A stretch of 64,000 bases of DNA from contig NC_091997.1 in assembly GCF_044704955.1 (NCBI RefSeq), positions 85,746,001 through 85,810,000 of the forward strand. Direction: 5' to 3'. The DNA comes from Pristiophorus japonicus. Lineage: Eukaryota. Below, piece by piece: positions 1,444-57,806 of this stretch; positions within the stretch are counted from its first letter, which is position 1; each line of letters opens with the position of its first letter. The notes below the pieces were generated by a model. It worked only from the letters and a program-made list of their open reading frames with translations, was not told the origin of the DNA and searched no databases. Made by a program: the position numbers and the translations under genes.

Positions 1444-4175
1444 GATCCACTTATCTCTTCTTCCGAGGACCAGGAGATGTCACCACTCTGCAATGCAACG
1501 TGCCCACCGGTGCTGGGAATAATGTAACCTTGTGCAGCTCCAGTGATGCCGGGTCAGGAATGGGTGAAATAAAATGTCAGCACCCAAAGAACGAGAAGCC
1601 ATGTGATGAAAATATCGGTCCTCAGGGAAGAAAAGGATACAGTGAGCCAGAGTGTACAAAATGCAAATTACATGACGACCAAACAGAGTCTCTGACATTC
1701 GCTGTGAAGACGATTAACTCGATGGTGTTTACCTTCATGGCTCAGGATTCCACAGAAGGAGGGGCATTGGAGTGTCCGTCCTGGCTCACACTGTCACAGT
1801 CGGGATGTGAAAACCACGACTTGTTCTTTGTGATAACCCAGGATGGTAGGTGCACTGGGGCAATATCGCGGGAGGGAACGGGGCAGAATCGGGGGAGGGA
1901 TCGAGGAAGATATTCGGGAAGTATCGGGGGAGTGATCGGCAAGGTATTGCGAGAACATATAATGTAAGGTATTAGGTGAGACATTAGGGGAGATTTTTGG
2001 AGGCGTTGGGGAGATACTGGAGGAGGTTTTAGTGCGGATAGCTGTCATTGGGAAAATGTTAGAGCCTTTATTAAGATGAAAATACCGCGTATGCAGATAA
2101 AGAGTAAATAGTGAGAAGTAGCTAGCACGGGTTTCAAACTGTCCAGGAGGTAACAGACATGGTAAGTGGGGGAATGCAGTGGATGTAGTGTACATGACCT
2201 AGTGTATAAGACCTAGCTCTGCCAAGCCAGTGTGGCGGTTGGTGTGCAACCGCCAGCACACATTAAAACAATCGACGCACTGGAATCTTCCATCCTTCAC
2301 AGTGTAGTTCGGACCTGCAATATTAGGTCCTTCATTGAAACACCCGTGAACTTTTTGACGTGGAAGCAAGTCATCCTCGATTGGAGGGACTGCCTATGAT
2401 GATGAGTGTACATGGTCTTTAGGAAATTCTTTGATAAAGTACCACACTAGAGATTATTATATTAACAAATATTATTTTCAATCTTGTTTATATTTTCAGC
2501 TAATATATCTTCTATTGAAGAAAACTCCTTGTCGCTGACAGTGTCAGAGGGAGAGAATGTGACTTTACCCTGCCAGTTTCAGAATAGAAAACTACTCGCC
2601 TTCAATCTGTTTTGGTTCAGATCTGGAAACGTCAATAAGTGTCTGCACTCTGTTTCCATTGACTCTCAGGGGCCATATTCTAACCCACTCTGTTGTGTGG
2701 ATAGAGAGTCGTCACAAATAATCTCTAACCAAAGCTCACACAATCCTTTGGTTAGCCGCCAGTCTCACAACCTTACTATTCACTCAGCGGGCCTGGTGGA
2801 CACTGGGAGGTATCTCTGTGCTGTACACAGTCAGGATTCAGGGAAATCTGTCTGGAAGATTGCAGCAAACATCTCCCTTGTGACGGAGCCCAGTGCAGAA
2901 ATTTCAGACTCTGCCACCTCAAACTCCTCAGAGACCAGCAACATAACTTATACAAATACTCAAAGTAAGTGATGCAATCTAGAACATGATGTGAACATTT
3001 AATATCAATAATTCAAGCTGTGAGATTCCAGGTCCATTGTCCAGTTTGTACCCTTTAGAAGTTGCTTCGATTTTCTTCCTTTGCCATTGCACTATTCTAG
3101 ATTGTAACCAGAAAAGTATGTTCCTCAGCCCAGGTAAACAGTGTAATGAGCAGCGGGAAATCTTCAGACACTCCCACCTCAACATTTGGAATATCTTTAG
3201 TGACCAGCAGCATAACTCATAGTAAGTGATACAATCCAGAATATGATGTGAACCATTTAATATCAATAATTCAATATAAATAATATAAATAATTCTTTCA
3301 GGCAATGTCCCATATGTGAGATTCCAAATCAATTGTCTGGTTTTGTACCCATTAGACGTTGGTTCGATTTTCTTCCTTCGCAATTGCACTTTTCCAGATT
3401 GTAACCGGAAAAGTATCTTCCTCGGCCCAGGTAACCAGTGTGATCAGCTGTACATATAAGACGGCATTGCACAAACTGAACTTAATGTTGCTTCTCCTCT
3501 GCATTTCCAGACCCTGCCATCACTGTGAACGTAGCCATAGTGTGTCTGATTGTACTCATTTGCATTGTTGGGATAGTTTGCATTATTGGGGTAGTTTGCC
3601 GAAGGAAACGACAATCTGCCAAAGGTAAAGGTAAGCAAGAGCGTTAAAATGTTTGATCTAAATCTATAAAATTGTAAGAGCAGATTCCTTACATAGATTC
3701 TTACATTTATCTTTCCCATCTTACGGCATGTGTTGTGAAGGATCCTCAGCACCAGGACCCAGGTAGGGATGGGATTTGATCAGTATTTCGGCAGACTTTC
3801 TGTATAATTTTGCTCATTTAATGGAACATTTACAGGTTACTTTTCTTTGCTAACTGTAGGGCCGGTGATGTGCAGCTGACACAAGTGGCTGAATGTAAGT
3901 GACTAGAATTGCTGGCCAACTCTTCCGATCCTGGCCCTTTGAGAGTTGAAACTAAAAGCATGGTGTTCCCGCCCTTCTGTCCAGGTTTCCCGTACTCTGT
4001 GGTTCCCAGGAAGGATCAGAGCGATGACAACGAGCCTGTTGCGTATTCGGTGACAAGAGTTCCAACGCCGTCGAGCCAGCCAAGGCCTGGTGAAGGAATG
4101 GAGAGCACTGGCCCAAACATTGACTCTACAGAGCATGTGTACTGTTTGATCGAGGAGTCAATGGTCAAAGGGTAA
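1444..4175 (+). CDS. Copy A (leader exon outside window; terminal exons deleted). Exons 1444-1845, 2500-2964, 3101-3133 and/or 3398-3430, 3511-3630, 3741-3762, 3860-3894, 3985-4171 (read-through stop ends 4175)
   Basis: Same exon set, phases and splice sites as copy B; ORFs 1374-1967, 2484-2972 and 3909-4175 contain the D1, D2 and tail exons. Confidence 0.8.
2197..2404 (+). mobile_element. Short retroposon (SINE-like, RTE-type ends) in the D1-D2 intron of copies A and C only
   Basis: 10-bp TSD AGTGTACATG (2187-2196, 2405-2414), (ATG)n tail; empty site in copy B near 27714-27723. Confidence 0.75.
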
Positions 4176-12225: not shown

Positions 12226-12564
12226 AGGAGTATTTTGTTTCCATGGAAACTAGAGCTTTCACTTATCTTACAGAACAAATGCTTCATGTATGGTGAGAGG
12301 CTGAGTGTAATTTTAGGCTAACTCGCCGGGGGCAGGAGAGTGGGGCGGGGGGTGGGGGGGCTCCTATGGTGTAATGCCATATTTACACCCTGCCCAAGAT
12401 TACTCTCCACAGATTTCAATGGAGGGTAAAATTGGGTGAGTTGTAAAACCATTGTAGCGCTCAATCCCATCACTTTCCCAGTGGGTGGGTTAATGTAAAG
12501 CCTCCTTCTATATTTCACTATTTTTCCTGCACTGGGTGTTGATCTAAGTGGGCAGTGGAATATG

Positions 12565-15010: not shown

Positions 15011-15640
15011 ACACGACTGCCAAGTGTGTACTCACTATCACCGTGCTGCACAGTGGCATGCTCATAGAGTACACATTGTATTTCAGAGCCTCTCACTTCC
15101 CCAGTCCCTTCTGTGACTGGAGAGTTGAACAAACAGCCCAACCACTGTCCCCAGGCTCATTAATACAACATCAGTGCACACATATCATCTGAGTCATCCA
15201 TAAGTCTACTGCCCATTTCCTAACTTGCACCATGTCCCGTTCACCCATCAACCTGACCTACATTGGCTCCCGGTTAAGCAAAGCCTCGATTAAAAAATTC
15301 TCATCCTTGTTTTCAAATCCCTCAATGGCCTCGCCCCCTCCCTATCTCTGTAATCTCCTCCAGCCCCACAACCCCCAAGATATCTGCGGTCCTCTAATTC
15401 TAGCCTCTTGAGCATTCCCGACTTCAATCGCTCAGCTGCCAAGACCCAAAACTCTGGAATTCTCTCCATCAACCTCTCCGCCTCTCTAGCTCTCTTTCCT
15501 GCTTCAAGACTCTCCTCAAAACCTATCTCTTTCACCAAGCTTTTGGTCATCTGCCCTAATTTCTCCTTATGTGGCCTGGTGTCAAATGTTGTTTGTAACA
15601 CTCCTGTGAAGCGCCTTCTGACGTTTTTCTACATGAAAGG

Positions 15641-18600: not shown

Positions 18601-19871
18601 ACAGCCCGCCAGATTAGGACTTGGACCAGCCAATATTCTCTCCTGTCCCTAGTAAAAAACTGTGTACTGCATGGGAGCTGGGCCAGCATCCCCGTTGAAA
18701 TGCAAGAGCCAATCAAGCCGTTCCAGTTGCGAAAGGACGAGCTGTCCATTCAGGCAGACTGGCTGTTGTGGGGTAACCGCGTAGTGCTACCAAAAAAGGG
18801 CAGGGAGACGTTCATCTCAGATCTCCACAGCACACATCTGGGTATAGTAATGATGAAAGCGATAGCCCCAGATCCCACATGTGGTGGCCCGGTATCGACT
18901 CTGACTTAGAGTCCTGTGTACGGCAATGCAGCGTGTGTGCTCAGTTGAGCACCGCACCCAGAGAGGCACCACTAAGTTTGTGGTCCTGGCCCTCCAGACC
19001 ATGGTCGAGGATCCATGTCAACTATGCGGGCCCGTTTCTCAGTAAAATGTTCCTGGTGGTGGTGGATGCTTTTTCAAAATGGATTGAATGTGAAATAATG
19101 TCGAGAAGCACCGCCACCGCCACCATTGAAAGCCTGAGGGCCATGTTTGCCACCCACGGCCTGCCTGACATATTGGTCAGTAACAACGGGCCATGTTTCA
19201 CCAGTGCCAAATTTAAAGAATTCATGAACCGCAATGGGATCAAACATGTCACCCTGTTTAAACCAGCCTGCAGTGGGCAGGCAGTGCGGGCAGTACAAAC
19301 CATCAAACAGAGCCTTAAACGAGTCACAGAAGACTCACTCCAAACCCGCCTGTCCCGAGCAGTGCTCAGCTACTGCACGAGACCCCACTCGTTCACAGGG
19401 GTGCCCCCGATTGAGCTACTCATGAAAAGGACACTTAAAACCAGACTCTCGCTGGTTCAGCTCAACCTGCATGATCAGGTAGAGAGCAGACGGCAGCAAC
19501 AAATATTAAACGATGGTCGCGCCACTGTGTCACGGGAAATTGATCTGAATGACCCTCTGTATGAGCGAAACTATGGACATGGTCCCAAGTGGATCGCGGG
19601 CACGGTGATAGCTAAAGAAGGGACTAGGGTGTTTGTAGTCAAACTAGACAATGGACAAATTTTCAGAAAGCACCTGGACCAAACGAGGCTGCGGTTCACA
19701 GGCTGCCCTGAACAACCCACAGCAGACACCACCTTTTTCGAGCCCACAACACACACCCACTGTCTATAAGCCGGCCCCGAAGGCCTGTTCCTCACTCTGG
19801 AGTGTCTGATTAAAGACTGAGGTCACTTTAACCTCCCTGTGTGAAGCCTCATCTGTGTTAGGAACACAATA
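15641..19871 (+). mobile_element. Decayed Ty3/Gypsy LTR retrotransposon (family 2)
   Basis: 5-bp TSD AAAGG both sides; 5' LTR ~15641-15816; PBS-like TGGTGACGAG; gag, LDTGA protease, RT (FQDD), RNase H, integrase (GPKW) fragments; 3' LTR partly deleted. Confidence 0.95.
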
Positions 19872-20024: not shown

Positions 20025-20079
20025 ATGGCGCTTGGTGCTCTGTTTGTGGGTCTTTTCCTTCTGTTCCAACATGTTGTAG
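20025..20079 (+). CDS. Copy B exon 1: signal peptide [18 protein letters not shown](G)
   Basis: 55 nt hydrophobic leader, AAATGG start context, phase-1 donor G|gtaagg matching the phase-1 acceptor of D1; identical in copy C. Confidence 0.85.
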
Positions 20080-26000: not shown

Positions 26001-29000
26001 CCAGTCCAAGTACATCCCTCCCCCAGCCGAAGGGTCTTACCCTAGTCCAAGTGCATGCCTCCCCCAGCCGAAGTGCCTTACCCTAGTCCAAGTGCATGCC
26101 TCCCCCAGCCAAAGTGCCTTGTCCCAGCGCAAGTACATCCACCCCCTTCCGCCCCATCCTCCCACACCATAGATGGGGCAGGGATTGTGTACGGATTGGT
26201 AACAGGTTTATTGGCTGTGAAGTGAATAGTGACAGTGTGGTGACTTCTGGATATCATTCACTCCAACGATGTCCCTTGTAGGGGGTTGGAAGAACATGAT
26301 CTGTCTTCCTTCCAATCATGTCTCTCCCCACAACTGCTCTCTCTCCCCACAGTCTCTCTCTCTCTCTACCCCCAATCTCTCTCTCTCTCTCTCTTCCCTC
26401 AATTTCTCTCTCCTCCCAGTCTCGCTCACTTTCCCGCTCCCCCCAGCCCCTCTCACCACCACCGCCCCAGTCTCTTTCTCCCCCTCCCCCCAGTCTCACT
26501 CTGCCTCTCGCTATCGCCCCCCACCAGCTGCTCTCGGGCCCACGCTGGTCGGAGGGAGGGTGGGCGGGTTCGGTGCCTCAGGTCCTGCGTCACGGCACCA
26601 CATGGATGGAATGATTTAGGCGGGGAGGGGGCAGAGCTTGACAGGGGCGGGGCTTGTCACCTGTCAGTCAAAAAAGTGCAGTATAGTCATGGGGGGCGGG
26701 GCTTGACAGACGCCTGTCTGTCAAAAAAAGTACAGTACAAATAGTTACATCGTTTTGATAAGGCTAGTCTTGCTGATCAGTGTCATTCAAACCATACACA
26801 TTGTCAACAAGCGTTAATGAAACAATTTGGAAGCTGTAAATTGACATCAAGTGGATACGCTAATTTACAGACTGTGGCAAAGAATTCTATGAAAGGAACA
26901 ATAAACTGGCCTATTACCAAGCCATTGTGCAGAGCATAATTTCCTATGAGAGGCTTTGTTTCACGTTGACTGTTTAATGAGCTTTCCTGTCTCTATCTCT
27001 ATCCCATTCTGCCCTTTCCCCGCAGGATCCACTTATCTCTTCTTCCTAAGACCAGGAGATGTCACCACTCTGCAATGCAACGTGCCCACCGGTGCTGGGA
27101 ATAAAGTAACCTTGTGCAACTCCAGTGATCCCGGGTCAGAAATGGGTAAAATAAAATGTAAGAACGAAAAGCCATGTTATGAAAATATCGGTCCTCAGGG
27201 GAAAAAAGGACACAGTGAGCCAGAGTGTACAAAATGCAAATTAAATGACCATGAAACGGAGTCTCTGACATTCGCTGTGAAGACGATTAACTCGATGGTG
27301 TTTACCTGCATGGCTCAAGATTCCACAGAAGGAGGGGCATTGGAGTGTCCGTCCTGGCTCACACTGTCACAGCCGGGATGTGAAAACCACGACTTGTTCT
27401 TTGTGATAACCCAGGATGGTAGGTGCACTGGGGCAATATCGCGGGAGGGATCGGGGCAGGTATTGGGGGAGGGATTGTTGTGGGAACATTAGGGGTAATT
27501 TAAGGTAAGGTATTAGGCGAGATATTAGAGGAGATATTAGAGAGACGTTGGGGAGATATTAGAAGAGGTTTTCGGGCAGATAGCTGTCATTGCCTTCATT
27601 AAGATGAAATTACCTTGTGTGTAGATAAAGAGTAATAGTGAGAAGTAGCTGGCACGGGTTTCAAACTGTCCAGGAGGTAAGAGACATGGTAGGTGGGGGA
27701 ATGCGGTGGATGCAGTGTACATGGACATTAGGAAATCCTTCGACTAAGTATCACATTGGAGATTATTATATTAACAAATATTCTTTTCAATGTTGTTTAT
27801 AGATTCAACTGATATATTTTTGATTAAAGAAAATTTGTCGCTGACAGTGTCAGAGGGAGAGAATGTGACTTTACCCTGCCAGTTTGAGAATATAAAACCA
27901 CTCCCCTTCACTCTGTTTTGGTTCAGATCTGGAAACGTCAACAAGTGTCTGCACTCTGTTCACACTGAGGATCATGCTGCACATTCTAACACACGTTGCT
28001 GTGTGGATAGAGAGTCATCACAAAGAATCTCTACCCAAAGCTCACACAATCCTTTGGTTAGCCGCCAGTCTCACAACCTTACTATTCACTCAGCGGGCCT
28101 GGTGGACACTGGGAGGTATCTCTGTGCTGTACACAGTCAGGATTCAGGGAAACCTGTCTGGAAGATTGCAGCAAACATCTCCCTTGTGACAGAGCCCAGT
28201 GCAGAAACTTCAGACACTCCCACCTCAACATCTGGAATATCCTCAGAGAGCAGCAGCATAACTTGTACAAATACTCAAAGTAAGTGATGCAATCTAAAAC
28301 ATAATGTGAACCATTTAATATCAATAATTCAAGGTGTGAGATTCCAGGTCCATTGTCCAGTTTGTACCCTTTAGAAGTTACTTTGATTTCCTTCCTTTGC
28401 CATTGCACTATTCTAGATTGTAACCAGAAAAGTATGTTCCTCAGCCCAGGTAACCAGTGTAATGAGCAGCAGGAAATCTTCAGACACTCCCACCTCAACA
28501 TCTGGAATATCCTCAGTGACCGGAAGCATTACTCCTACAAACATACAAAGTAAGTGATACAATCTAGAATATGATGTAAACCATTTTATATCAATAATTC
28601 AATATAAATAATATAAGTAATTCTTTCACACAATGTCCCAGACTCCTCCATCACCTTCCCAGGGTATGTCCGGTCCCACCGGCAGGACAGACCCACCAGA
28701 GGTGGCGGCACAGTGGTATACAGTTGGGAGATAGTGGTCCTGGGAGTCATAGAAACATAGAAACATAGAAAATAGGTGCAGGAGTAGGCCATTCGGCCCT
28801 TCAAGCCTGCACCGCCATTCAATGAGTTCATGGCTGAACATGAAACTTCAGTACCCCATTCCTGCTTTCTCGCCATACCCCTTGATCCCCCGAGTAGTAA
28901 GGACTACATCTAACTCCTTTTTGAATATATTTAGTGAATTGGCCTCAACAACTTTCTGTGGTAGAGAATTCCACGGGTTCACCACTCTCTGGGTGAAGAA

Positions 29001-29741: not shown

Positions 29742-32700
29742 AGGCCTGTGCAGCAGAGCCTAGTCTCCAATCATCTTGGGTCCCCTTGCCATTGGACCAA
29801 GACCCAGCTCTGTCAAGTCTGTGTGGTGGCTGGTGTGCAACGGCCACCCCATATTAAAAGGATTTATGGTGCATAGGCATCTTCCACCCTTTAAAATGAA
29901 GTTCGAGATCTGGCCCGCATTAGTCTCATCAGTCACCTTAGAACTCATTTTAGTGTGGAAGCAAGTCATGCTCAACTCCGGGGCACTGCCTAAGAAGAGA
30001 GAAGAAGAAATGGGATAGATTCAGAAAAGACCTTGCAGATAAAACTGGGCATTCATGAGGGCCATCATCAGCAGCAGAATTGTATTCCACAACAATCTGT
30101 GACCTCATGTCCCGGCATATCCCTCACTCTACCATTACAATTAAGCCAGGGGACCAACCCTGGTTCAATGAAGCGTGTAAAAGAGCATGCCAGGAGCAGC
30201 ACCAAGCACACCTAAAAATGAGGTGCCAACCTGCTGTAGCTACACTACATGCATGCTAAACAGCACATGCAGCATGCTATAGGCAGAGTGAAGCGATTCC
30301 ACAACCAACGGATCAGATCAAAGCTCTGCAGTCCTGCCACATGCAGTCATGAATGGTGGTGGACAATTAAACAACTAAGGGGAAGAGGCTCCATGAACAT
30401 CCCCATCCTCCATGATGGCAAAGCCAGCACGTGAGTGCAAAAGACAAGCAGAAGTGTTTGCAACCATCTTCAGCCAGAAGTGGTGTGCGGATGATTCATC
30501 TCGGCCTCCTCCGGAGGTCCCCAATATCACAGAAAACAGTCTTCAGCCAATTTGATTCACTCCATGTCATATCAAGAAATAGCTGACGCACTGGATACGG
30601 CAAAGTCTATGGGCCCCGACAGTATCCCGACTGCAGTGCTGAAGACTTTTGTCCCACAACTTACCCTGCCTCTATCCAAGCTGTTCCATTAAAGCTACAT
30701 CACTGGCGTCTACCCAACAAAGTGGAGAATTGCCCAGGTATGTATGTTCATGATTGCAGTCTTCTGTTCCATTTGCAACCCCTCAGATAATAAAGCAGTC
30801 CATGTCTGTATGCAGCAAGACCTGGACAACATTCAGACTTTGACTGATAAGTGGCAAGTAACATTTGCGCAACACAAGTGCCAGGGAATGACCATCTCCA
30901 ACAAGAGAGAGTCTAACCACCTTCACTTGATATTCAACGGCATTACCTTCACTGAATCCCCACCATCAACTTCCTAGGGGTCAGCATTGACCAGAAACTT
31001 AACTGGACCAGTCACATAATTGCTGTGGCTAGAAGAGCAGGTCAGAGGCTGGGTATTCTGTGGCGAGTGTCTCACCTCCTGACTCCCCAAAGTCTTTCCA
31101 CCATCTACAAGGCACAAGTCAGGAGTGTGATGGAATGATGAGTTGAGCTCCAACAATTTGATGCTCGACACCATCAGGATTAAGGAGCCTGCTTGATTTG
31201 CATTCCAACCACATGTTAAACGTTCACTCCCTCCACAACCAGCGTACCGTGGCTGCAGTGTGTACCATCCACGATGCACTGCAGCAACTCACCAAGGCTT
31301 CTTCGGCAGCACCTCCCAAACCCGTGACCTCCACCATGTAGAAGATCAAGGGCAGTAGAATGGATTGTGACTTGGAGAGGAACATCCTCATCTCCAAGTT
31401 CCCCTCAGTCACACACCATCCTGACTTGTAAATATATCACTGATCTTTTATCGTCGCTGGTCAAAATCTTGGAACTCCCTCTCTAACAGCACTGTGGGAG
31501 TACCTTCATCACGTGGACTGCAGCGGTTCAAGAAGGTGGCTCACCACCACCTTCTCACGGGCAATAAGAGATGGGCAATAAATTTTGGCCTTGTCAATGA
31601 TGCCCACATCCCATGACTGAATACAACAGAAATTAAGCGAGAGATTCAAGAGCAATTGTCCACTTTGTACCCATTAGACGTTGGTTCGATTTTCTTCCTT
31701 CGCAATTGCACTTTTCCAGATTGTAACAGAAAAGTATCTTCCTCGGCCCAGGTAACCAGTGTGATCAGCTGTACATATAAGACGGCATTGCACAAACTGA
31801 ACTTAATGTTGCTTCTCCTATGCATTTCCAGACCCTGCCATCACTGTGAACGTAGCCATAGTGTGTCTGATTGTACTCATTTGCATTGTTGGGATAGTTT
31901 GCATTATTGGGGTAGTTTGCCGAAGGAAACGACAATCTGTCAAAGGTAAAGGTAAGCAAGAGCGTTAAAATGTTTGATCTAAATCTATAAAATTGTAAGA
32001 GCAGATTCCTTACATAGATTCTTACATTTATCTTTCCCATCTTACGGCATGTGTTGTGAAGGATCCTCAGCACCAGGACCCAGGTAGGGATGGGATTTGA
32101 TCAGTATTTCGGCAGACTTTCTGTATAATTTTGCTCATTTAATGGAACATTTACAGGTTACTTTTCTTTGCTAACTGTAGGGCCGGTGATGTGCAGCTGA
32201 CACAAGTGGCTGAATGTAAGTGACTAGAATTGCTGGCCAGCTCTTCCGATCCTGGCCCTTTGAGAGTTGAAACTAAAAGCACACATGGTGTTCCCGCCCT
32301 TCTGTCCAGGTTTCCCGTACTCTGTGGTTCCCAGGAAGGATCAGAGCGATGACAACGAGCCTGTTGCGTACTCGGTGACAAGAGTTCCAACGCCGTCGAG
32401 CCAGCCAAGGCCTGGTGAAGGAATGGAGAGCACTGGCCCAAACATTGACTCTACAGAGCATGTGTACTGTTTGATCGAGGAGTCAATGGTCAAAGGGTAA
32501 GCAGAGTGACAGCTGTCACCCCTCGGCTACGGTCAACACTGACCACAACTTTGTTTTAGGATGGAGGGTTAGAAGATCGTTAATGTAATGAAGGTGAGGG
32601 GAGCCCATGCTGGCAAATGGGTTACTTTTCCACTTTGGCCACACAGTATCACTTGGAGCACTCCAGATTAGGCACAGCGTAAAACTCCCTCTGGACTGTC

Positions 32701-35526
32701 CCAACAATGTTCCTCAACTCCAAGGTCAGGAGAGAGGTCAGACATCTTCACTTCTCACACCTCATGTCCTGTTTGAGTGGAAGGGCCAATTTAGAGGTAG
32801 TTTTGTACTGTGGCTCACATGAGCTGCAAACTGGATCGAGATGACCAAATTAATTTCATCAAGGACCATGAGAGAAAATGTGAGAGAAAGAAAGAGACAG
32901 AGAAAGACAGAGACAGAGACAGACAGTGATAGGTTCAGACAGAGACTGCGACAGAGACAGACAGACAGTGATAGATTCAGATAGAGACTGACCTGATATT
33001 GGAATAAAGGAGCACTATCAGAAAAGCATCACAGTGCCCTTATGAAGTTATCTTTTTTTTTTAAACTCTCTCAGGACAATATTTTGGCATATGTGACCAT
33101 AGTGATCAATTTCGTCCAAATATTTTACTGAATGATTGGCAGTTTTAGGCAAGGAATTGGATTGAGGCTGAACACTCTTTGCAGAGAGGACAGCTTACAT
33201 AGCAGACTCAGAGAGATAAAGAGAGATATGGAGACAGTAACAGAGACACAGAGAGACAGAGAGAGACAGAGAGAGACAGACAGAGAGCAACACAAAGAGA
33301 GAAAGAGAAAGAGAGACAGTGTTTTGGATCGATAATAATAGACCCAGGTTCGGGATCTGGGTGAATGTTAAATAATAGATAAGACAAATGAAGTAAAGAA
33401 TTAAATACTGTTTACTGAGGGAAAAGAAATATTAATAAAAAAGTTTACGAAGAAAAGAGAAGTATGATAAGATGCAACAACGCTGACGGCCTTCGGCCTG
33501 TCGGGAACTCTGCAACGACGGCTGGTCTGGAGCCTTGGGGGTCCCGGCACCGCTCGCGAATCGCGGTCCAAGGTGAAGTTCGAAGAGCTAAGGGACAGTG
33601 CCGCTCCTTTATACTATTAAACAAAACATGGGTGCATGTGGCTTATGGCCAACTCCTAATCTGTAACACCCCAGCTGCTTGTCCACAAAGCATGAGATCT
33701 CGAGGCGCCGACAGTCTCATAATAAGCTGGTGTGCATCTCAAGATCGCTTCCCTCTCTCTCTCTCTATAGCAACAACAATCCACGAAGCATGGAGCAGAA
33801 ACACACTGTAAATGACTAAATATCATAATTAACTTTATGTGATTAACCCTCTACAATCGAGACGGAGATAGACAGTGAGACGGGGATCGAATAACAGACA
33901 GAGAGCGAGAAACAGAGACAGAGAGAGANNNNNNNNNNNNNNNNNNNNNNNNNNNNNNNNNNNNNNNNNNNNNNNNNNNNNNNNNNNNNNNNNNNNNNNN
34001 NNNNNNNNNNNNNNNNNNNNNNNNNNNNNNNNNNNNNNNNNNNNNNNNNNNNNNNNNNNNNNNNNNNNNNNNNNNNNNNNNNNNNNNNNNNNNNNNNNNN
34101 NNNNNNNNNNNNNNNNNNNNNNNNNNNNNNNNNNNNNNNNNNNNNNNNNNNNNNNNNNNNNNNNNNNNNNNNNNNNNNNNGACAGAGACAGGCAGAGAGA
34201 CAGCGAGAGAGAGAGAGAGAGAGAGAGAGTCAGCGAGACAGGAAGAGAGAGACAGAGACAGGCAGCGAGNNNNNNNNNNNNNNNNNNNNNNNNNNNNNNN
34301 NNNNNNNNNNNNNNNNNNNNNNNNNNNNNNNNNNNNNNNNNNNNNNNNNNNNNNNNNNNNNNNNNNNNNNNNNNNNNNNNNNNNNNNNNNNNNNNNNNNN
34401 NNNNNNNNNNNNNNNNNNNNNNNNNNNNNNNNNNNNNNNNNNNNNNNNNNNNNNNNNNNNNNNNNNNNNNNNNNNNNNNNNNNGCATAGAGAGAGACAGG
34501 GAGAGACGGTGATAGGCAGAGAGAGAGAGACAGAAAGAGAGAGACGGAGACAGATAGAAACAGCGAGAAAGAGAGAGAGACAGGCAAAGAGAGACAGAGA
34601 CACAGAGAGACTCAGAGCGAGAGAGAGAAAGAGGCAGGCAGAGCGAGACAGAGAGAGAGACAGGGAGAGAGACCGAGAGAGAGAGATAGATGGAGAGAAA
34701 GAGAAAGAAACAGAGAGAAAGAGAATCGGTGAGACAATCCGAGAGTCAGAGAGTGACAGACAGAGTAACAGACAGAGAGTGACAGACAGAGAATGACAGA
34801 CAGAGTAACAGACAGAGAGTGACAGACAGAGAGTGACAGACAGAGTGACAGACAGAGAGTGACAGACAGAGAGTGACAGTCAGAGAGTGACAGACAGAGA
34901 GTGACAGACAGAGAGTGACAGACAGAGTGACAGTCAGAGAGTGACAGTCAGAGAGTGACAGACAGAGAGTGACAGACAGAGAGTGACAGACAGAATCAGG
35001 GAAAATGAATGAGGGAATTTCAGGCTGGGTTAGACTGAAATCCAGGCCAGTGGGGAGAAAGTGACTGAATGTAGTTTCCACTTACAGCTGTTTAATATTG
35101 TTTGAATCATATGTTACTCATTTTTCACACATTTAATTTTCTGTTTTCCCAGTGATGACGGCAAAACTGAAATCCAGGCAGTAAAATGTAAGTCGTGGCA
35201 ATCTTTCAGTATCTTTCATTATCTGTCCCCACATGGAAGTGAAACCCTCTTAATTTCTAGGCAGTGACCGCACGGACCATGTACCGCAGGTTGAAACCTC
35301 TTTAGCCATTGAACTCAAACCAGACGGCCAATCGCAGCCCAAAGAGGACAGTAAGGAGGATCCCGTTGCTCTGTCTAATGAGCAGACTTATTCTTTGATA
35401 GGTTGCCCGGGGACAGGGAGCCCAGGAGACACGGAGACAAGGTCTTGGCTGGAGGAAGATGATCCACAACCTGGCCCGTTAGAGATGGAAGAAAATCCTA
35501 TTTATGCTAAAATAGAGGAAGCCTGA
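20025..35526 (+). CDS. Copy B, complete spliced gene: type I transmembrane two-Ig-domain receptor with multi-tyrosine tail (~540 aa). Exons 20025-20079, 27026-27418, 27803-28279, 28417-28449, 31832-31951 (or -31945), 32062-32083, 32181-32215, 32310-32496, 35153-35187, 35261-35526
   Basis: All introns are GT-AG and phases chain consistently (1,1,1,1,1,2,1,2,1). The sum is 1623 nt with no internal stop. Order is signal peptide, Ig-like, IgV, stalk, TM, tail. Stalk exon choice is uncertain. Confidence 0.8.
21223..22475 (+). mobile_element. 5'-truncated CR1 LINE in intron 1 of copy B
   Basis: ORFs 21170-21427 and 21616-22425 (RT and C-terminus); empty site in copy C near 49245. Confidence 0.92.
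22850..23160 (-). mobile_element. Shark-type tRNA-derived SINE (HE1-like), decayed
   Basis: Reverse of tRNA-like head (gggttcaagtcccactccagagacttgagc) and ctatagaaatgcaag tail; family name from recall. Confidence 0.6.
23510..25040 (-). mobile_element. Decayed LINE 3' fragment, same family as 28640-31630, interrupted by a solo LTR
   Basis: Reverse-complement similarity to 30760-31620. Confidence 0.7.
23996..24652 (+). mobile_element. Solo LTR (657 bp)
   Basis: TGT...ACA ends, 5-bp TSD GAGAG (23991-23995, 24653-24657), TATA (~24492) and AATAAA (~24578); host LINE is contiguous once removed. Confidence 0.8.
27026..27418 (+). CDS. Copy B D1 exon: Cys-rich atypical Ig-like domain (PGDVTTLQC...MVFTC)
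   Basis: Polypyrimidine tract + cag acceptor, donor G|gtaggt, 393 nt phase 1-1, open frame, 9 Cys. Confidence 0.8.
27803..28279 (+). CDS. Copy B D2 exon: V-set Ig domain plus Ser/Thr stalk
   Basis: [25 protein letters not shown]-set motifs; acceptor tttatag|, donor A|gtaagt; 477 nt phase 1-1. Confidence 0.9.
28640..31630 (+). mobile_element. Decayed LINE (endonuclease-RT remnants) in the stalk intron of copy B, with nested CR1 3' end (28749-29165, minus) and SINE-like insert (29587-30007)
   Basis: Absent in copies A and C; the nested insert is flanked by AAATGGGAT direct repeats and contains (GT)n and an (AAG)n tail. Confidence 0.75.
31832..31951 (+). CDS. Copy B TM exon (D)[39 protein letters not shown]
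   Basis: Acceptor catttccag|, ~23 hydrophobic residues then RRKR stop-transfer; tandem in-frame donors after 31945 and 31951. Confidence 0.88.
32062..32496 (+). CDS. Copy B proximal cytoplasmic exons: 22 nt (32062-32083), 35 nt (32181-32215), 187 nt (32310-32496); contain FPYSVV, VAYSVT, HVYCLI
   Basis: 22+35 nt microexons together keep frame ([20 protein letters not shown]); GT-AG boundaries, though the 22-nt exon has a weak AAG acceptor. Confidence 0.75.
33870..34995. repeat. GA-rich and (GACAGAGAGTGACA)-type microsatellite with N runs; homologous tract 63120-64000
   Basis: Directly visible low-complexity sequence. Confidence 0.95.
35153..35526 (+). CDS. Copy B terminal cytoplasmic exons: 35 nt (35153-35187) and 266 nt (35261-35526), ending EQTYSLIGC...[13 protein letters not shown]
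   Basis: Acceptors ttttcccag| and tttctag|, donor T|gtaagt; phases 2 and 1 match the upstream exon; not in the ORF track. Confidence 0.78.
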
Positions 35527-48145: not shown

Positions 48146-51100
48146 ATGGCGCTTGGTGCTCTGTTTGTGGGTCTTTTCCTTCTGTTCCAACATGTTGTAG
48201 GTAAGGATCCATACTTTCAACTAATCTTCAACATGTTTATCTGGAAATATCAGTTTCTATCTGTACCTGAACGCAGAAATATAAGGATTGAAGGATATCG
48301 ATTGCCATCAGTGCTGCTTTCACGCGGATGTTTAATGTACTCATATGACAGTTGTTGCTGGGTCATTTTAACACGGTTTAATCATGGGTGGTCAGTTTAA
48401 AATTGGCACTAAGAGAGTGAGGAGACAGATTAGGAGAACATTTTTTACACAGAGGTTTGTTTTGCCACAGGGAGTGGTTGACGCAGAGACATTTTCATCT
48501 TTTGAAGGAAAACTGGAAAACATTTGAAGCAGAGGAAGATTTGGGGCTGTGGGGAGAGCGAGGCAATGGGTTTGCTCTGGCAAAGAGCCAGCACTGGCAC
48601 GATGGGCCCAATTGCCTCCTTCTGTGCTGCAAACGTCTTTGGTTCAACTCCTGTCTTAAAACAGTGCAGGGATGAAATACAAGAACAGTGCTGATCCTAT
48701 CCCAATTTCCCTTACAACAGAATCATATCTCACTCTAGGAATGAAATAGTGGAAGATTTAGAAGAGTTAGAAGGATTTGCTGATGGGCTTTAATGGAGAG
48801 AGGGGGTGGGAAGTCCGTGCAGAGCATAAATGCGGCATGGAGCAGTTGGGCCGAATGGCCTGTTTCTGTGCCGAACATTCCATGTAATTCTGTGTAAGAT
48901 TTTATGCTCAGACTCGATCATTGGGAACTCGAAAGTAACAATTATATTTGATGACTCAGCCGAGCCTCACACCATTAAAGGGTGGAGACCACACTAGGCG
49001 GGGCCCACGACACCACTCGGACCAGGGCTCGAAATCAGCACCACTGGCAAAATGGAGCAGCTCAGGGCTTTCTGTACATTACAGACCGTCCATTCCGCGA
49101 TTGTTCTGTAAGGAAATGGAAACCGACACTGTGTAAAGGGGGATTTGTAACCATACTCTGCAATTTGTTTCTAAACAGACTCTGTGTAATATGGGCGGTC
49201 TGCCGACAGATTCTGTTCCTCAAATGATAAGTGACGTCTGCCCCTAACCTCAGTCCAAACACGGCTGAGTTACAACCGAGTCTGACTGGGAGATGTGGTT
49301 TGGTGTTTATTCGAGCTCTGGCGTAATAGTGATCTATAGTACAGACACACCTGGGTCAGTGGGGCCAAGTTTCAGTTGAGTTGCTCCTGTTTTTTTGGAG
49401 CAACTAGTTTAGAATGGAATATCTTAGAAATTTGAATTCTCGGCATTTAGTTTGTTCCAGTTCTAGTCAGTTAGAACAGTTTCACTTTGGAACAGAATTT
49501 TTTTTTCAAAAGGGGGCGTGTCCGGCCATTACGCCTGTTTTTAAAGTTTAGGCAGTGAAAACTCACTCCAAACTAACTTAGAATGGAGTAATTGAAGATT
49601 TTTGTACGTTCGAAAAAACCTTGTCTACACTTTAGAAAATCAGGCGTAGGTTACAAATTCGGCGTAGGGAACGAGGGCGGGGGGGGAGACGGGGGGGGAA
49701 GGGAAGTCATTAAATTCTACAATCAATCCTTCAGCCATGAACTCATTGAATGGCAGTGCAGGCTAGAAGGGCCGAATGGCCTACTCCTGCACCTATTTCC
49801 TATGTTTCTATGTTAGTTATACTTATACAAATATTATACCAATAAATCCAACCTGAATAAAAATTTATAAGCAAAGAAAAGATTAAATAATCCATGTTCC
49901 GACCTGTGTGAAACAGCAGCAACCTTCAGGCAGGCCTTTCATGTTGGAGACAGGCAGGGGTGGTGTCAGTGTCTCGACGGCAGCCCCCACAGCAGCAACA
50001 AGCAGCCTTCGAGCTGAGCTGTGGTGCTTCAGGCAGGCCTACATTCCATTAGTGGCTGGCCGGCAGCCGAAGAATCAACACGCACGCAGCTTTCGAAGGG
50101 GGTTGAGGCCATTCGGCCACACGATAGGGGCGGCGTCAGTGGCTCGACGGCAGCCGAAGATACAGCAGCAGCTTTCGAGCTGTGAGGGGACTGAGGCCAT
50201 TTGGCCAGGGAGAGGCAGCCACATAGACAGTTTTATACTTAAATTTGCAGAATGGGTGCTGCATTGTCAACACCACGTATTATGCAATGGTTTGCCATCA
50301 ATTCACTGCATAGGAGAGAATTGATTAGAGCTCACTGCACCAGGAACATCGTAACCCGTAGGTTGCTGGGCAGGAGATCTTACCCACGTCAACAATATCG
50401 AGCCAGGCGCTCGTACCTGGACATGAGCGAGGCTGATTGTGTGAAAAGGCTGCGTTCACTGAGATCTGTGATATGGTGAGAGCAGATTTGCAGCCCAAAA
50501 GCAGACTGCCAACTGCCCTGTCTGTTGCAGTGAAGGTAACAGCTGCACTTTCTTTCTATGCCTCGGGATCGTTTCAGGCTACAACTGGAGATGTGTGTGC
50601 CATCTCTCAACGTGCAATACATGCCTGCATTTACCAGGTCACGGCTGCACTGTATGCGCGGAGGAATGACCATCAATTTCCCAATGACCGCACAAGCGAT
50701 CCATGAGAGGGCTGTGGGCTTCTTCAGGATTGCTGGCTTCCCAAAGGTACAGGGCTGCATTGATTGTACCCACATAGCCTTGCGAGCACCTGTGGAGGAT
50801 TCTGAGCAGTACCGAAATAGGAAAGGTTTCCACTCTATCAATGTGCAGCTCGTGTGTGACGACAAGCAGCGCATCATGTCAGTCGATGCGAGATACCCTG
50901 GCAGCACCCACGATGCGTTCATCCTACGCGACAGCGTTCTATCTGACATGTTTGAGCAGCAGCCAGAAGGGCAGAGCTGGCTACTGGGAGACAAAGGGTA
51001 CGGCCTGACCATCTGGCTCATGACACCCCTACGCATGATACGGACAGAAGCTGACCGTCAATACAACATGGCGCACATTGCGACACGCATCATCATTGAG

Positions 51101-54100
51101 AGATCCATTGGCATATTGAAACAGCGTTTCGGATGCCTGGACCATTCCGGAGGACAGTTGCTATACTCTCCTCAGATTGTCGGTCACTTCACTGTTGTGT
51201 GCTGCATGCTTCATAACTTAGCCATCATGAGGCAGCAGGAGCTGGTAATGGAACCAGAAGACCCACGTGAGGGTCCAGTACCTGATGATAGTATTATGGA
51301 AGAGCAGGATGAGGATGATGACGACGATCAGGAAAGCATGCAAGTGCCTGATGCCGGAGCACTAGGTCGGAGGAGGGCTGTCCATCGTGCTCCTTTAACG
51401 ATTGCTCGAGCCTTGTGCCAGCAGCTCATCCGTGAACGCTTCAACTACTGATGCCTGAGGGTTCTGTGACCACTTTTGCACATGGACATGTTTATTCTTT
51501 GCAGTTGTTCCGACGTTGTGTTGTGTTAATGGAACATTTAATGGAAGTTTTAATGAAAAAATATTTTATTGAAAAGTTAACGTCACTGTAATAAAATATT
51601 TGTTGTATCAAACTATACTTTTTAATATGACTCTTGAAGATCACTTAAAAACTTTATGGTCACTTATAAACTTGTAAAGTTACAAAAGTTACAAAACAAT
51701 CGCAATGTGAAAAATCTTACTCTTAAGATCACTTAAACTTCAAGATCACTTTTTAGATGCAAAATTAAATAAGTTACAGAATGTGAGAGCATTTACACTA
51801 AAAGATCACTTGAAAACCCTGAGATCACTTATAAATTGTAAAATTACAAAACTTACAAAACAATTTCAATTTGAAAAACGCTACTACAGCTACATCAAGA
51901 ACAAGAACAAAAGCAGCAAAGAAAGGCTGCATCCATGTCTCATCCATATCTCAGTGAATGTTCACTTCCTCATAGGGGTGTCATTTGATTGGCCGGGCTG
52001 TGTGCCCTTATTGCAGCAGCTACCTCAACCAGGCCCTCCCTGACGGCCTGTGCCGTCATTTGCATGCCCCCCCGACGGCCTGTGCTGTTGATTGCACTCT
52101 CTCGGACATTCCCTCCCTAAGTTCCCGTGTCATTACTGCTATTTCTCCTGTCAGGACCGTCAACTCTTCACCCACTGCACTGACGCCACCGATGAGTGAT
52201 CGGGTAAGCTCATTGGTCTCCATACCCAACGCCACAACCTGAGCCGCATCTGTTGCATGCTGCATCTCAGGAGAGCGTGTCTCCAATCTCCTTCTCCTCT
52301 GCCTGGGTCTGCCTCGTGGCACCACTACACTGGGAGGCGCGGGCACGGACAGTGGGACGCTCTGTGTTGCAAGCGGCACCACTACACAGGGAGGCGCGGG
52401 CTGGGACTGTGGGACGCTCTGTGTTCCAGACGGCAGAACTAGAGGGAGAGACTCGGGTTGAAATGCTGGGATGCTCTGTGTTGCAGACGGCAGAACTAGA
52501 GGGAGAGGCTCGGGTTGGAATGCTGGAATGCTCTGTGTTGCAGACGGCAGAACTAGAGGGAGAGGCTCGGGCTGGAACGGTAGGACGCTCTGTGTTGCAG
52601 ACGGCAGTACTAGAGAGAGAGGCTCGGGCTGGGATGGTGGGGCGCTCGGTGTTCCAGACAACAGCACTCGAGTGCGAGCCATGGGCTGGGATGTTGGACG
52701 AATGAGTATAAACTGCTCCATGATATCAGCAGCAGCACTGGGACCCGCAGCGTCGGAATCAAAACCATAGTAGATGGAGCCAGAACCTATGCGAGAGGGA
52801 GGAGCAGGCTCGGACGGTAGTGCACTGACTGTAGAAAGCTGCATTATACCAGCAGCACCACTGGGACCCGCAACATCGGAAGCAAAACCATGGAAGGTGG
52901 AACCAAGACCTATGCTAGGGGTTGAAACTCTGATGCCCCTTGATGGGGGCTCAAACATTAAATTGGAAGCTCTCCCCTGCAGACATTTCAGTCATCGCTG
53001 CCATCATCCAGTCTGGTTCATCCACATCTGGTTGATCTGTATCTTCAGGATCCTCAGGGTTGGCAGCAGCAGCACCACCTTCATCATCATCATCATCATC
53101 AACATCATCATCATCATCATGTTCTGCAAAATACATCAGAACAGTCAAATGTTTAACAGCAAGGGAGGGGGCCGGATGGGTGGCATGAGTACTCTCACAC
53201 ATAGCAGGTTAGGCAGCAGGTTGATTTAAAGGGCCACGATGCATTTTCAGGACTTACCCTCTTCCTCGTGTGCAGGCCCAGCTTGTGCTGTACTGATTGC
53301 TTTTCTCCATGTACCACTCATCATAGCAGCTACCCTCTGTTCCAAGGGTGTCAGTGGATGCAGATTGGGCATGCCTCCTCCTGTCCGAGTTGCCTCCCTT
53401 TTGTTGTGGGCCAATTTCTTCTGCAAAGAGTAAAATCTAACTTTTTACAGAGTGTGTCAGTCTGCAAGGTGGGACATACAGATCGCCAGGTTACATTGTC
53501 TCCGTATCCACTCTATCAAAATCTCTCATCGTTTTAAAGACCTCTGTTAGGTCACCCCTCAGCCCTCTTTTTTCATGATAAAAGAGACCTAGCCTTTTCA
53601 TCCTTTCCTCATGTGTATACCCTCGCATTTCTGATATCATCCTTGTAAATCTTCTCTGAACCCTCTCCAGTGCTTCCATATCCTTTTTATAATATGGCGA
53701 CCAGAACTGTACGCAGAACAGGTGCAGCGCCTAAGACCCGAAACTCTCGGGACCGAGGCCATTCCGGATTCTGGGTTTTTCTGGACTTTCAATTTGCTTT
53801 CTGACATCACGAATCCGGAAACACCCACGCCCAGGTTTGAGTATTTCCGGATTTCGGAACATCTGAAAGGGGGGCGGGGGGGGTGCGGCGGGGATGGATT
53901 CCCACCAAGAAGCTGTTCGGGCCGCCTGGCCCCACTGCCAAGGATGTTGTCGGGCGGGGCTCTGCCGGAAGGTTGTTGTCGGGTGGTCCCCGCCGAGGAT
54001 GATATCGTCAGATGAGCCCCGCCGAGGAGATCATCATCGGGTGGGTTGGCGAGGAGACCCCGAGGTAAGGGCAGCGACGTTGAGGTGAGCGGGGCTGGGT

Positions 54101-57100
54101 GAGCTGTAGCGAGGCCCAAGGTTGGGCAGCAACGGGGCCCCGAGGTGGGCAGGGTCATCGAGTCCAAATTTCCGGAACATTTTACGGATTCTGGACAACC
54201 CTACCACCAATCGTCCTGGAGTCTGGATTCCGGAACATTCCGGATTCTGGACTCCGGATTCTCAATGCTGCACCTGTACTCTAAGGCCCTGGAATTGGTG
54301 GAAGCTAAGTTCTGCCCAAAGGACCGCTGAGATCCTGACGGTACTTTGGCCGGAAGTTTCATGGAAAAATCTTGGAAAGACCGCCCGGCGGCAAAAATGG
54401 GACTTACGCCCTGAATCTGGGCGGCAGCGGGAGGTAGTTCCCATTCTCGGCGGCAAATGCAATCCTCAGCTAAGTACGAGGGCGGAACTGATAAAATTAA
54501 ACATTTTCACAAAATTAAAAAAACACTAGAAATCCTTCAGCGGACCCCATCCACCCGAATCCCTGCAAAAGAAATAAAGAAAAGAACTGCACTTACCTTT
54601 TATTGCAGGTCTTCATACTTACCGTTGAGGTTAGACCTGCCTTCACGCGGCGGGCTTGTCCCCTGCTGGAGCGGAGGACCGCCCGGACCAAACTGTCAGC
54701 ATTTACAATCATTCTCTCTGAAACTGACCCGAACTTCAGGATGTTGCGCATCTAAACGCGGAAATCCTGACGTTGCGGTCAGTCATTCAACACTCTGACA
54801 CAGGCGACGCTGTGGATCCCCTACCACCGACCCCACCCCGTATTGCCGGCAATCAGTGAAATCAGTGCAGCTTTCCCACGCTAATTTTGCTGTTAAACAC
54901 TCCATGAAATGTTAAGCCTTGTTAGATTAAGTGTAACTGGGGTTTTGACCAACAGTGTATTGACTGCAAAAAAAAAATCACGATTCCTTAATTTCCTGTG
55001 AGAGGCTTTGTTTCACGTTGACTGTTTAATGAGCTTTCCTGTCTCTATCTCTATCCCATTCTGCCCTTTCCCCGCAGGATCCACTTATCTCTTCTTCCGA
55101 GGACCAGGAGATGTCACCACTCTGCAATGCAACGTGCCCACCGGTGCTGGGAATAATGTAACCTTGTGCAGCTCCAGTGATGCCGGGTCAGGAATGGGTG
55201 AAATAAAATGTCAGCACCCAAAGAACGAGAAGCCATGTGATGAAAATATCGGTCCTCAGGGAAGAAAAGGATACAGTGAGCCAGAGTGTACAAAATGCAA
55301 ATTACATGACGACCAAACAGAGTCTCTGACATTCGCTGTGAAGACGATTAACTCGATGGTGTTTACCTTCATGGCTCAGGATTCCACAGAAGGAGGGGCA
55401 TTGGAGTGTCCGTCCTGGCTCACACTGTCACAGTCGGGATGTGAAAACCACGACTTGTTCTTTGTGATAACCCAGGATGGTAGGTGCACTGGGGCAATAT
55501 CGCGGGAGGGAACGGGGCAGAATCGGGGGAGGGATCGAGGAAGATATTCGGGAAGTATCGGGGGAGTGATCGGCAAGGTATTGCGAGAACATATAATGTA
55601 AGGTATTAGGTGAGACATTAGGGGAGATTTTTGGAGGCGTTGGGGAGATACTGGAGGAGGTTTTAGTGCGGATAGCTGTCATTGGGAAAATGTTAGAGCC
55701 TTTATTAAGATGAAAATACCGCGTATGCAGATAAAGAGTAAATAGTGAGAAGTAGCTGGCACGGGTTTCAAACTGTCCAGGAGGTAACAGACATGGTAAG
55801 TGGGGGAATGCAGTGGATGTAGTGTACATGACCTAGTGTATAAGACCTAGCTCTGCCAAGCCAGTGTGGCGGTTGGTGTGCAACCGCCAGCACACATTAA
55901 AATCGACGCACAGGAATCTTCCATCCTTCACAGTGTAGTTCGGACCTGCAATATTAGGTCCTTCATTGAAACACCCGTGAACTTTTTGACGTGGAAGCAA
56001 GTCATCCTCGATTGGAGGGACTGCCTATGATGATGAGTGTACATGGTCTTTAGGAAATTCTTTGATAAAGTACCACACTAGAGATTATTATATTAACAAA
56101 TATTCTTTTCAATCTTGTTTATATTTTCAGCTAATATATCTTCTATTGAAGAAAACTCCTTGTCGCTGACAGTGTCAGAAGGAGAGAATGTGACTTTACC
56201 CTGCCAGTTTCAGAATAGAAAACTACTCGCCTTCAATCTGTTTTGGTTCAGATCTGGAAACGTCAATAAGTGTCTGCACTCTGTTTCCATTGACTCTCAG
56301 GGGCCATATTCTAACCCACTCTGTTGTGTGGATAGAGAGTCGTCACAAATAATCTCTAACCAAAGCTCACACAATCCTTTGGTTAGCCGCCAGTCTCACA
56401 ACCTTACTATTCACTCAGCGGGCCTGGTGGACACTGGGAGGTATCTCTGTGCTGTACACAGTCAGGATTCAGGGAAATCTGTCTGGAAGATTGCAGCAAA
56501 CATCTCCCTTGTGACGGAGCCCAGTGCAGAAATTTCAGACTCTGCCACCTCAAACTCCTCAGAGACCAGCAACATAACTTATACAAATACTCAAAGTAAG
56601 TGATGCAATCTAGAACATGATGTGAACATTTAATATCAATAATTCAAGCTGTGAGATTCCAGGTCCATTGTCCAGTTTGTACCCTTTAGAAGTTGCTTCG
56701 ATTTTCTTCCTTTGCCATTGCACTATTCTAGATTGTAACCAGAAAAGTATGTTCCTCAGCCCAGGTAAACAGTGTAATGAGCAGCGGGAAATCTTCAGAC
56801 ACTCCCACCTCAACATTTGGAATATCTTTAGTGACCAGCAGCATAACTCATAGTAAGTGATACAATCCAGAATATGATGTGAACCATTTAATATCAATAA
56901 TTCAATATAAATAATATAAATAATTCTTTCAGGCAATGTCCCATATGTGAGATTCCAAATCAATTGTCTAGTTTTGTACCCATTAGACGTTGGTTCGATT
57001 TTCTTCCTTCGCAATTGCACTTTTCCAGATTGTAACCGGAAAAGTATCTTCCTCGGCCCAGGTAACCAGTGTGATCAGCTGTACATATAAGACGGCATTG

Positions 57101-57806
57101 CACAAACTGAACTTAATGTTGCTTCTCCTCTGCATTTCCAGACCCTGCCATCACTGTGAACGTAGCCATAGTGTGTCTGATTGTACTCATTTGCATTGTT
57201 GGGATAGTTTGCATTATTGGGGTAGTTTGCCGAAGGAAACGACAATCTGCCAAAGGTAAAGGTAAGCAAGAGCGTTAAAATGTTTGATCTAAATCTATAA
57301 AATTGTAAGAGCAGACTCCTTACATAGATTCTTACATTTATCTTTCCCATCTTACGGCATGTGTTGTGAAGGATCCTCAGCACCAGGACCCAGGTAGGGA
57401 TGGGATTTGATCAGTATTTCGGCAGACTTTCTGTATAATTTTGCTCATTTAATGGAACATTTACAGGTTACTTTTCTTTGCTAACTGTAGGGCCGGTGAT
57501 GTGCAGCTGACACAAGTGGCTGAATGTAAGTGACTAGAATTGCTGGCCAACTCTTCCGATCCTGGCCCTTTGAGAGTTGAAACTAAAAGCATGGTGTTCC
57601 CGCCCTTCTGTCCAGGTTTCCCGTACTCTGTGGTTCCCAGGAAGGATCAGAGCGATGACAACGAGCCTGTTGCGTATTCGGTGACAAGAGTTCCAACGCC
57701 GTCGAGCCAGCCAAGGCCTGGTGAAGGAATGGAGAGCACTGGCCCAAACATTGACTCTACAGAGCATGTGTACTGTTTGATCGAGGAGTCAATGGTCAAA
57801 GGGTAA
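48146..57806 (+). CDS. Copy C (terminal exons expected beyond 64000). Exons 48146-48200, 55078-55479, 56131-56595, 56732-56764 and/or 57029-57061, 57142-57261, 57372-57393, 57491-57525, 57616-57802
   Basis: Leader identical to copy B; D1, D2, TM and tail translations identical to copy A; downstream intron sequence (62424-64000) matches copy B 33164 onward. Confidence 0.82.
49361..53490 (+). mobile_element. PIF/Harbinger DNA transposon, decayed: DDE transposase 50252-51451 (+, frameshifted) and convergent partial second gene 52056-53430 (-)
   Basis: [45 protein letters not shown]1-like motifs; left end GGGGCCAAGTTTC; second gene acidic/Pro-rich with 60-bp repeats (52320-52660); right end not found. 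Confidence 0.88.

Follow-up and report, generated by a model that had tools for sequence, protein, structure and literature searches.

Paired leukocyte receptors of opposing function, among them PIR-A/PIR-B, NKG2A/C and KLRI, are known to have homogenised ligand-binding domains (PMC3210942; all papers are cited here for the portions of their text available to us). Tyrosine signalling in the tails of immune receptors is described by the ITIM consensus (S/I/V/L)xYxx(I/V/L) and also by the ITSM (PMC12151841). Few germline-encoded pairs of activating and inhibitory receptors have been described in sharks. The locus of Pristiophorus japonicus analysed here resembles the paired receptors in that its genes lie in tandem and that the ectodomains are closer within than between species (PMC3210942). 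Judged from its sequence, the array would work like a paired immune receptor, and nothing so far places it in a named family.

Organisation of the array

The window, that is the whole analysed stretch of 64,000 nucleotides (NC_091997.1, G000:C21, positions 85,746,001-85,810,000), contains three genes (A, B and C) of an array of 10 tandem genes extending over about 320 kb. Protein and DNA searches located all 10 V-domain copies within 85.55-85.85 Mb, in the order G1, four successive B,A pairs with a spacing of 67, 67 and 54 kb, and G10. The genes follow a common plan composed of a signal exon, a cysteine-rich domain 1 of 130 residues, a V domain, a Ser/Thr stalk and a membrane segment (Table 1). 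The V cores of the 10 copies differ pairwise by 0 to 27 of 357 bases, the four B copies differing from one another by at most one base, as do the four A copies, and two loop-2 types are found, a third type being absent. The loops of G10 are of the A type (distance to A 10 bases, to B 23). Since A and C share 99.76% of their bases over 7.2 kb, the window yields one independent A/B contrast and not two.

Table 1. Positions in the window of the exons and loops of genes A, B and C
Feature	Position	Strand	Basis or remark
Gene B signal-peptide exon	20025..20079	+	tblastn of P0005; ATG and GT donor read
Gene B domain 1 exon, cysteine-rich, likely a degenerate Ig domain	27026..27418	+	aligned Ig-like positions
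Gene B intron from domain 1 to V exon, neutral baseline	27419..27802	+	52/382 aligned bases differ from C
Gene B V-set exon and start of Ser/Thr stalk	27803..28279	+	Pfam V-set E 7.9e-8; fold Z up to 13.1
Loop 1, B form (BC loop, CDR1-equivalent)	27886..27912	+	peptide placement, predicted model
Loop 2, B form (C'-C'' region, CDR2-equivalent)	27961..27996	+	near the state of other sharks
Gene B second stalk exon	28445..28549	+	
Gene B membrane-segment exon, uncharged	31832..31951	+	spliced joint
Gene B three tail exons (PYSVV, VAYSVT, HVYCLI)	32062..32496	+	GT..AG joints
Gene B last two tail exons (TYSLI, EENPIY, then stop)	35153..35526	+	
Gene A, whole span in window, to first tail exons	1444..4171	+	signal exon before window
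Gene A domain 1	1444..1845	+	
Gene A V exon	2500..2964	+	shifted acceptor
Loops 1 and 2, A form (derived)	2580..2690	+	
Gene A membrane segment	3511..3630	+	
Gene C (A type)	48146..57802	+	last two exons just past window end
Gene C signal exon	48146..48200	+	
Gene C domain 1	55078..55479	+	
Gene C V exon	56131..56595	+	
Gene C membrane segment	57142..57261	+	
Gene C tail	to 57802	+	

Strands A to G and the stalk are encoded in one exon, which is spliced to the next exon. As the whole V domain is contained in this exon, the loops are not the CDRs of a rearranging receptor and are CDR-equivalent by position only; TCR and Ig, whose V segment stops short of strand G and is joined to a J segment, were rejected as candidates. 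In the A-type genes the V-exon acceptor AG has been lost (2490-2500) and an acceptor 6 bases downstream is used, as confirmed by a spliced contig. Among the rows listed, the GT..AG joints of the tail exons are present in runs X5-X8 (runs not recorded as RNA), and the V-to-membrane joint of G10 is present in X5, X6 and X8 and absent from the DNA run X9; A-type spliced sequence is also present in runs not recorded as RNA. Database isoforms P0021-P0024 skip the V exon and retain domain 1 only.

The tail of B and A comprises about 197 residues with five tyrosines, and G10 has a different membrane exon and a tail of 14 residues. Gene A of the window is without the last two tail exons (4171-7210), its repeat unit being 53.6 kb vs 67 kb, and the matching protein P0024 has a different C-terminus. 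In G1 (85,552,202-85,552,333, L027) the ectodomain and the membrane segment are intact and a stop directly follows the membrane segment, so that this gene could be a tail-less decoy or a pseudogene; its loop 1 is a mixture of B and A residues. An isolated fragment of domain 1 with 75% identity occurs on another contig (G000:C22:22,063,350-22,063,526; L021, L060), and the 30 kb examined there contain no match to the V exon.

PSMA4 is located about 40 kb downstream of the array, followed by an APH-family exon which we take to be HYKK. No nicotinic-receptor exon match adjoins the array, the nearest one listed being at 80.6 Mb. Scanning 80 of the 279 candidate ORFs in 200 kb of the upstream flank gave retroelement domains only; for the downstream and near flanks, 150 of 240 candidate ORFs were scanned. 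An integrase C-terminus and envelope ORFs resembling an endogenous retrovirus lie between the array and PSMA4 (L052:5908-7735). Inside the window, long repeats, probably LTR retroelements, occupy introns and spacers at 7209-12692, 14645-19684 and 39429-47655, and an integrase-like peptide is found near 19200 within long repeated elements.

Divergence and probable selection in the V domain

According to the original prediction, the divergence between A and B is concentrated in two loops of the V domain, and our data bear this out: over 119 codons, 15 of the 18 amino-acid differences fall in these loops, a proportion reached by none of 5000 position shuffles in which the best two windows were taken each time. 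Loop 1 (peptides of ten residues starting at 27886 in B and 2580 in A) indeed carries five base changes, all nonsynonymous, and loop 2 (12 residues, from 27961 and 2655, respectively) differs at 10 of 12 residues through 14 base changes; in C, the corresponding peptides start at 56211 and 56286. The expected near-identity of the framework was also recovered, with 3 replacement changes in 225 sites. The single residue said to separate the membrane segments and tails is found as SAK in A (3615) and C (57246) and SVK in B (31936), but two further tail exons add two more residues distinguishing B from the A type. In the predicted model (pLDDT about 50-70 for both loops), loop 1 corresponds to the BC loop and the start of strand C, and loop 2 to the C'-C'' region and the C''-D link. 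The start of the V exon has diverged as well (8/35 bases), and domain 1 shows 15 nonsynonymous changes and a 3-codon indel between B and the A type. The F-strand cysteine of domain 1 (27308) is replaced by phenylalanine in the A-type genes and in the short-tailed gene and is kept in B and G1.

Along the gene, B and C differ by 24/1255 bases (1.9%) around the signal exon and by 20/393 in domain 1. The intron after domain 1 stands at 52/382 (13.6%), loop 1 at 5/27, loop 2 at 14/36, strands D-G at 1/155 and the intron that comes next at 6/166. At synonymous sites, the 5' half of the V core (6/46) matches the intron after domain 1, whereas codons 67-117 show 0/36 (P 0.005); the 3' part has therefore been recently homogenised, and a baseline of about 0.13 applies to the loops. 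The membrane and tail exons differ by 2/365 bases and their introns by 6/661 (0.9%). Since the introns of the tail are as alike as its exons, the identity of the A and B tails reflects recent homogenisation and is not evidence of constraint. The claim of a conserved signalling module thus loses the A/B near-identity as an argument, but conservation of the motifs is seen across species.

The codon, site-model and run tests were performed with our own scripts, in place of codeml, MEME and GENECONV. In loop 2, 12 nonsynonymous differences in 27.5 sites are to be compared with 52/382 bases for the intron and 6/46 for the synonymous sites of this exon half, giving a dN/dS of about 4.4 (binomial P 1.5e-4; scan-corrected P 0.001-0.003). 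For loop 1, dN/dS is about 1.9 (P 0.15), within the neutral expectation; hence loop 2 exceeds the divergence of the flanking intron and loop 1 does not. When neutral evolution was simulated with a best-window scan at d of 0.09, 0.12, 0.15, 0.20 and 0.27, the loop-2 value was reached in 0, 1, 5, 30 and 231 of 1500 simulations, and the two-loop value in 0, 5, 29, 313 and 1080 of 1500, respectively. Replacement changes are in excess in the loops relative to the framework (P 0.011), and the local test inside the loops gave P 0.13 (17 N vs 2 S), which is not significant. Transversions account for 14/19 loop changes vs 21/52 in the intron (P 0.013). With B4, A3, G1 and G10 as the distinct types (4 of the 10 copies), comparison of M1a with M2a over 252 codons favoured a class with dN/dS >1 (2dL 8.9, P 0.012), also with the V domain only (2dL 7.5, P 0.023). 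Codons 42, 45 and 106 were flagged, of which two belong to loop 2 and the third to the FG loop. A number of loop-2 codons have changed at two bases, and multi-base mutations and recombination are known to inflate site tests; all three incompatible site patterns occur (13, 5 and 4).

The same data bear on a mosaicism without selection, in which loop 2 of A would have been copied from an older paralog or haplotype, now lost, the rest of the gene being homogenised later. Divergence is patchy along the gene (the values near the signal exon, in the next intron and in the tail introns given above), loop 2 has accumulated synonymous divergence (2/8.5), a tract at the highest simulated divergence gives the loop-2 value at the frequency stated above, and G1 combines B and A residues in loop 1, all of which are in agreement with such an origin. 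However, neither the 10 copies nor a scan of 430 kb yielded a donor for either loop-2 type, and none of the 17 other-shark sequences matches the A loop. An old neutral tract should moreover be rich in transitions like the intron, which the loops are not, and the run tests for conversion tracts were not significant (7044/10000 for B-A; the best, 354/10000, concerns one of six pairs and is not significant after six comparisons). We consider this origin of the loop unlikely.

Direction of change and a possible ligand switch

To polarise the differences, the V domains of other sharks served as reference (17 sequences, after omission of one identical duplicate domain). Of the 18 differences, 12 are derived in A, 3 are derived in B and 3 are unclear. 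A has changed E17, P25, H44, R65 and P108, each of which is present in 17/17 sequences, and its loop matches 0/17 of them (e.g., H44, 17/17, and E46, 16/17). The branch leading to A, G1 and G10 measures 0.14 and the branch leading to B 0.019. A second shark (organism B) has B-like letters at seven listed loop positions and shares the A residue at loop-1 position 25 (place 27904); when this position is counted as ancestral, the asymmetry becomes 11 to 4 and its P value goes from 0.035 to 0.12. These comparisons suggest that the change in A is mainly an episodic rebuild of a conserved surface, B mostly retaining the residues conserved in other sharks.

A weaker general variability of the loops is also present across sharks. 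Entropy in the 17 other-shark sequences is about 1.0 in the BC, C'C'' and FG loops vs 0.63 elsewhere, organism B has two loop-2 variants, and in five other pairs of long and short forms 10/30 differences fall in the two loops (P 0.03) and 15/30 when the FG loop is included (P 0.002). Such variability would be expected if selection were still diversifying the loops in all paralogs and species, as happens in an arms race between host and pathogen. Yet the B copies and the A copies are each nearly identical in the V core, the A/B differences occur mostly at positions conserved elsewhere, and in every Ig domain the loops are more variable than the strands, so that a protein-level excess alone is insufficient to show selection; we regard an arms race as somewhat less likely than the mosaic origin discussed above. 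The proposal of diversifying selection on the loops is consequently retained in part: the replacement excess of loop 2 over neutral divergence and the M2a class above 1 speak for selection, but loop 1 behaves neutrally and the pattern is mainly a burst in the A lineage, not an even diversification among paralogs.

A further explanation, the least probable in our judgement, is a relaxed constraint on a redundant A lineage combined with one clustered mutation event, without new function. It is in line with the loss of the domain 1 F-strand cysteine in A and the short-tailed copy, the shifted splice acceptor of A, the two tail exons lost by the window copy of A and the stop of G1. On the other hand, the few framework replacements indicate that constraint persists, the A type is spliced and its face recurs in four long genes, in the short one and in G1, and relaxation alone cannot exceed neutral divergence.

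The predicted signalling of the two forms was considered through their tails and membrane segments. EENPIY (NPxY) is present in 13/13 shark long forms, the HVYC(L/V)(I/L) motif is conserved across species in long forms, and their membrane segment is uncharged. None of the five tail tyrosines of this species lies in a strict ITIM or ITSM; one strict ITIM is found in 6/13 shark long forms and an ITSM in 0/13. In 7/7 short forms, C-x-x-x-R occurs at the start of the membrane segment, the arginine being near its outer end, a membrane aspartate is present in 4/7, and the tails are of 10-36 residues with 0-1 tyrosines. A short-tailed form of Heptranchias (P0001) has its two-domain ectodomain duplicated, giving four domains, and may be a gene-model fusion. 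In 6 sharks, the V domains of long and short forms cluster by species (support 95-100), a grouping which corresponds to the pattern of paired receptors; the long-tailed copies would be inhibitory.

Taken together, we lean, with some reserve, towards a paired-receptor array undergoing homogenisation, in which positive selection acted episodically on the C'-C'' face of the A lineage. Positive selection would have rebuilt the predicted ligand-binding face on the A lineage, and sequence exchange between neighbours would have kept the rest of the gene alike. Inhibition by the long-tailed copies would depend on phosphotyrosine motifs (the invariant NPxY and ITIM-like motifs), and the membrane arginine of the short-tailed copy would recruit an ITAM adaptor for activation. 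B could keep the ancestral ligand. A and the short-tailed copy share the new face, with which they could act in opposition on a new ligand; a protein of a pathogen or a self ligand that has changed is the most likely candidate. Speculatively, since the V domain is membrane-proximal and the linker preceding it has also diverged, the binding site could be at the hinge between the two domains. The array constitutes a natural experiment, in which ancestral and rebuilt ectodomains are borne by a nearly identical tail.

Distant relatives and comparison with known systems

Word-index searches returned only uncharacterised shark proteins (20, 22 and 28), the closest being 100% identical Pristiophorus japonicus entries. 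The family nevertheless extends beyond sharks, as a full HMM search gave 88 hits, 57 of them at E 1e-10 or better. The 30 HMM hits looked up come from sturgeon, gar, eels, salmonids and other teleosts, lungfish and, among tetrapods, newts, frogs, a caecilian, a turtle, lizards, a snake, an alligator, a kiwi and an echidna, with no placental mammal, ray or chimaera among these 30; all are uncharacterised or hypothetical except one labelled PD-L1, in an otherwise uncharacterised cluster. Of 53 distant relatives examined, 50 have the V-domain signature and 39 a membrane segment; among these 39, a charged residue was flagged in 2 (both at the edge), a strict ITIM is present in 7 and an NPxY in 0. 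Activating paralogs could be hidden by the 50% clustering. The V domain has a V-set fold that ties with many V-set domains, and the fold matches listed point to no particular family.

Domain 1 gave no Pfam hit and no PDB sequence hit at E 10, and its profile match to the V domain has a probability <1%. A deeper alignment places a B-strand cysteine, a C-strand tryptophan (in the distant relatives) and an F-strand cysteine at Ig-like positions; the predicted fold has a pLDDT <50 in both models, and the best ESM Atlas hits are unnamed, with V-set clusters at 0.90-0.91. No description of the receptor family was found in the literature searched (mostly open papers, main texts), the supplements of PMC11599192 listing shark Ig-family sequences; in the available portion of the fish-immunity review PMC6795676, neither the MDIRs nor a similar family is mentioned. 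Selection on the Ig loops of immune paralogs is a familiar pattern, and the point of interest is rather the undescribed family. Tentatively, the locus may represent a tyrosine-signalling Ig receptor of jawed vertebrates, present from sharks to monotremes, possibly lost in placental mammals, with an activating partner gained in sharks; one branch in this shark lineage could have switched ligand through the C'-C'' face, the activating copy mirroring the new face, in a history of host-pathogen decoys. We hold this wider scenario to be possible and less probable than the selection on the A lineage itself.

The NITRs have an N-terminal V domain with a J-like FGxG motif, followed by an I domain. They were rejected, the V domain being second here and its G strand reading WKIAANISL. 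In the CD300/TREM/pIgR/MDIR group, an extra cysteine stands in strand C beside the tryptophan. This group was also set aside, as strand C reads LFWF here and the extra cysteines are in C' and a CC pair, and no hit is named MDIR or CD300 among those whose names were seen. The skate MDIRs, which are related to CD300/TREM/pIgR, share with the array the existence of multigene activating and inhibitory Ig receptors in a cartilaginous fish (PMC3031540). The CD28/PD-1 receptors of sharks are similar by their V domain, stalk and tail with tyrosine motifs (PMC11599192, PMC12151841). This family was rejected because it has a single V domain (PMC11599192), whereas a domain of 130 residues precedes the V domain here; the shark genes also have other neighbours, PSMA4 and IREB2 being absent from the available portion of that paper. 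PD-1 is among the top fold matches of our V domain, with scores that tie with many V-set domains.

CD200R has its domains in the order V then C2 and, in the activating forms, a membrane lysine. In the array, by contrast, a cysteine-rich domain precedes the V domain and an arginine lies near the outer membrane end. The likeness to CD200R in ESM Atlas features is weak (0.92), and CD200R is absent from the sequence hits. The two systems are nevertheless alike in being paired, in having two Ig domains and in an inhibitory form that signals, for CD200R, via NPxY (PMC8007030, PMC3664923). The ruminant CEACAM32 genes, which belong to another family, present a similar picture of conversion in the leader exon and introns and not in the selected Ig-domain sequence; in the array, distinctness is confined to the 5' half of the V exon, the 3' half being homogenised (PMC7042247 for CEACAM32).

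Compared with PIR, NKG2 and KLRI, the array has no sequence kinship beyond the Ig fold, is devoid of a strict ITIM in this species, and its signalling is predicted only. It also differs from PIR by its many long-tailed copies and one short copy, the reverse being the case in PIR (PMC3210942). It is like the paired receptors in associating a form with an uncharged membrane segment and tyrosine motifs and a form with a membrane arginine and no such motifs (PMC3210942).
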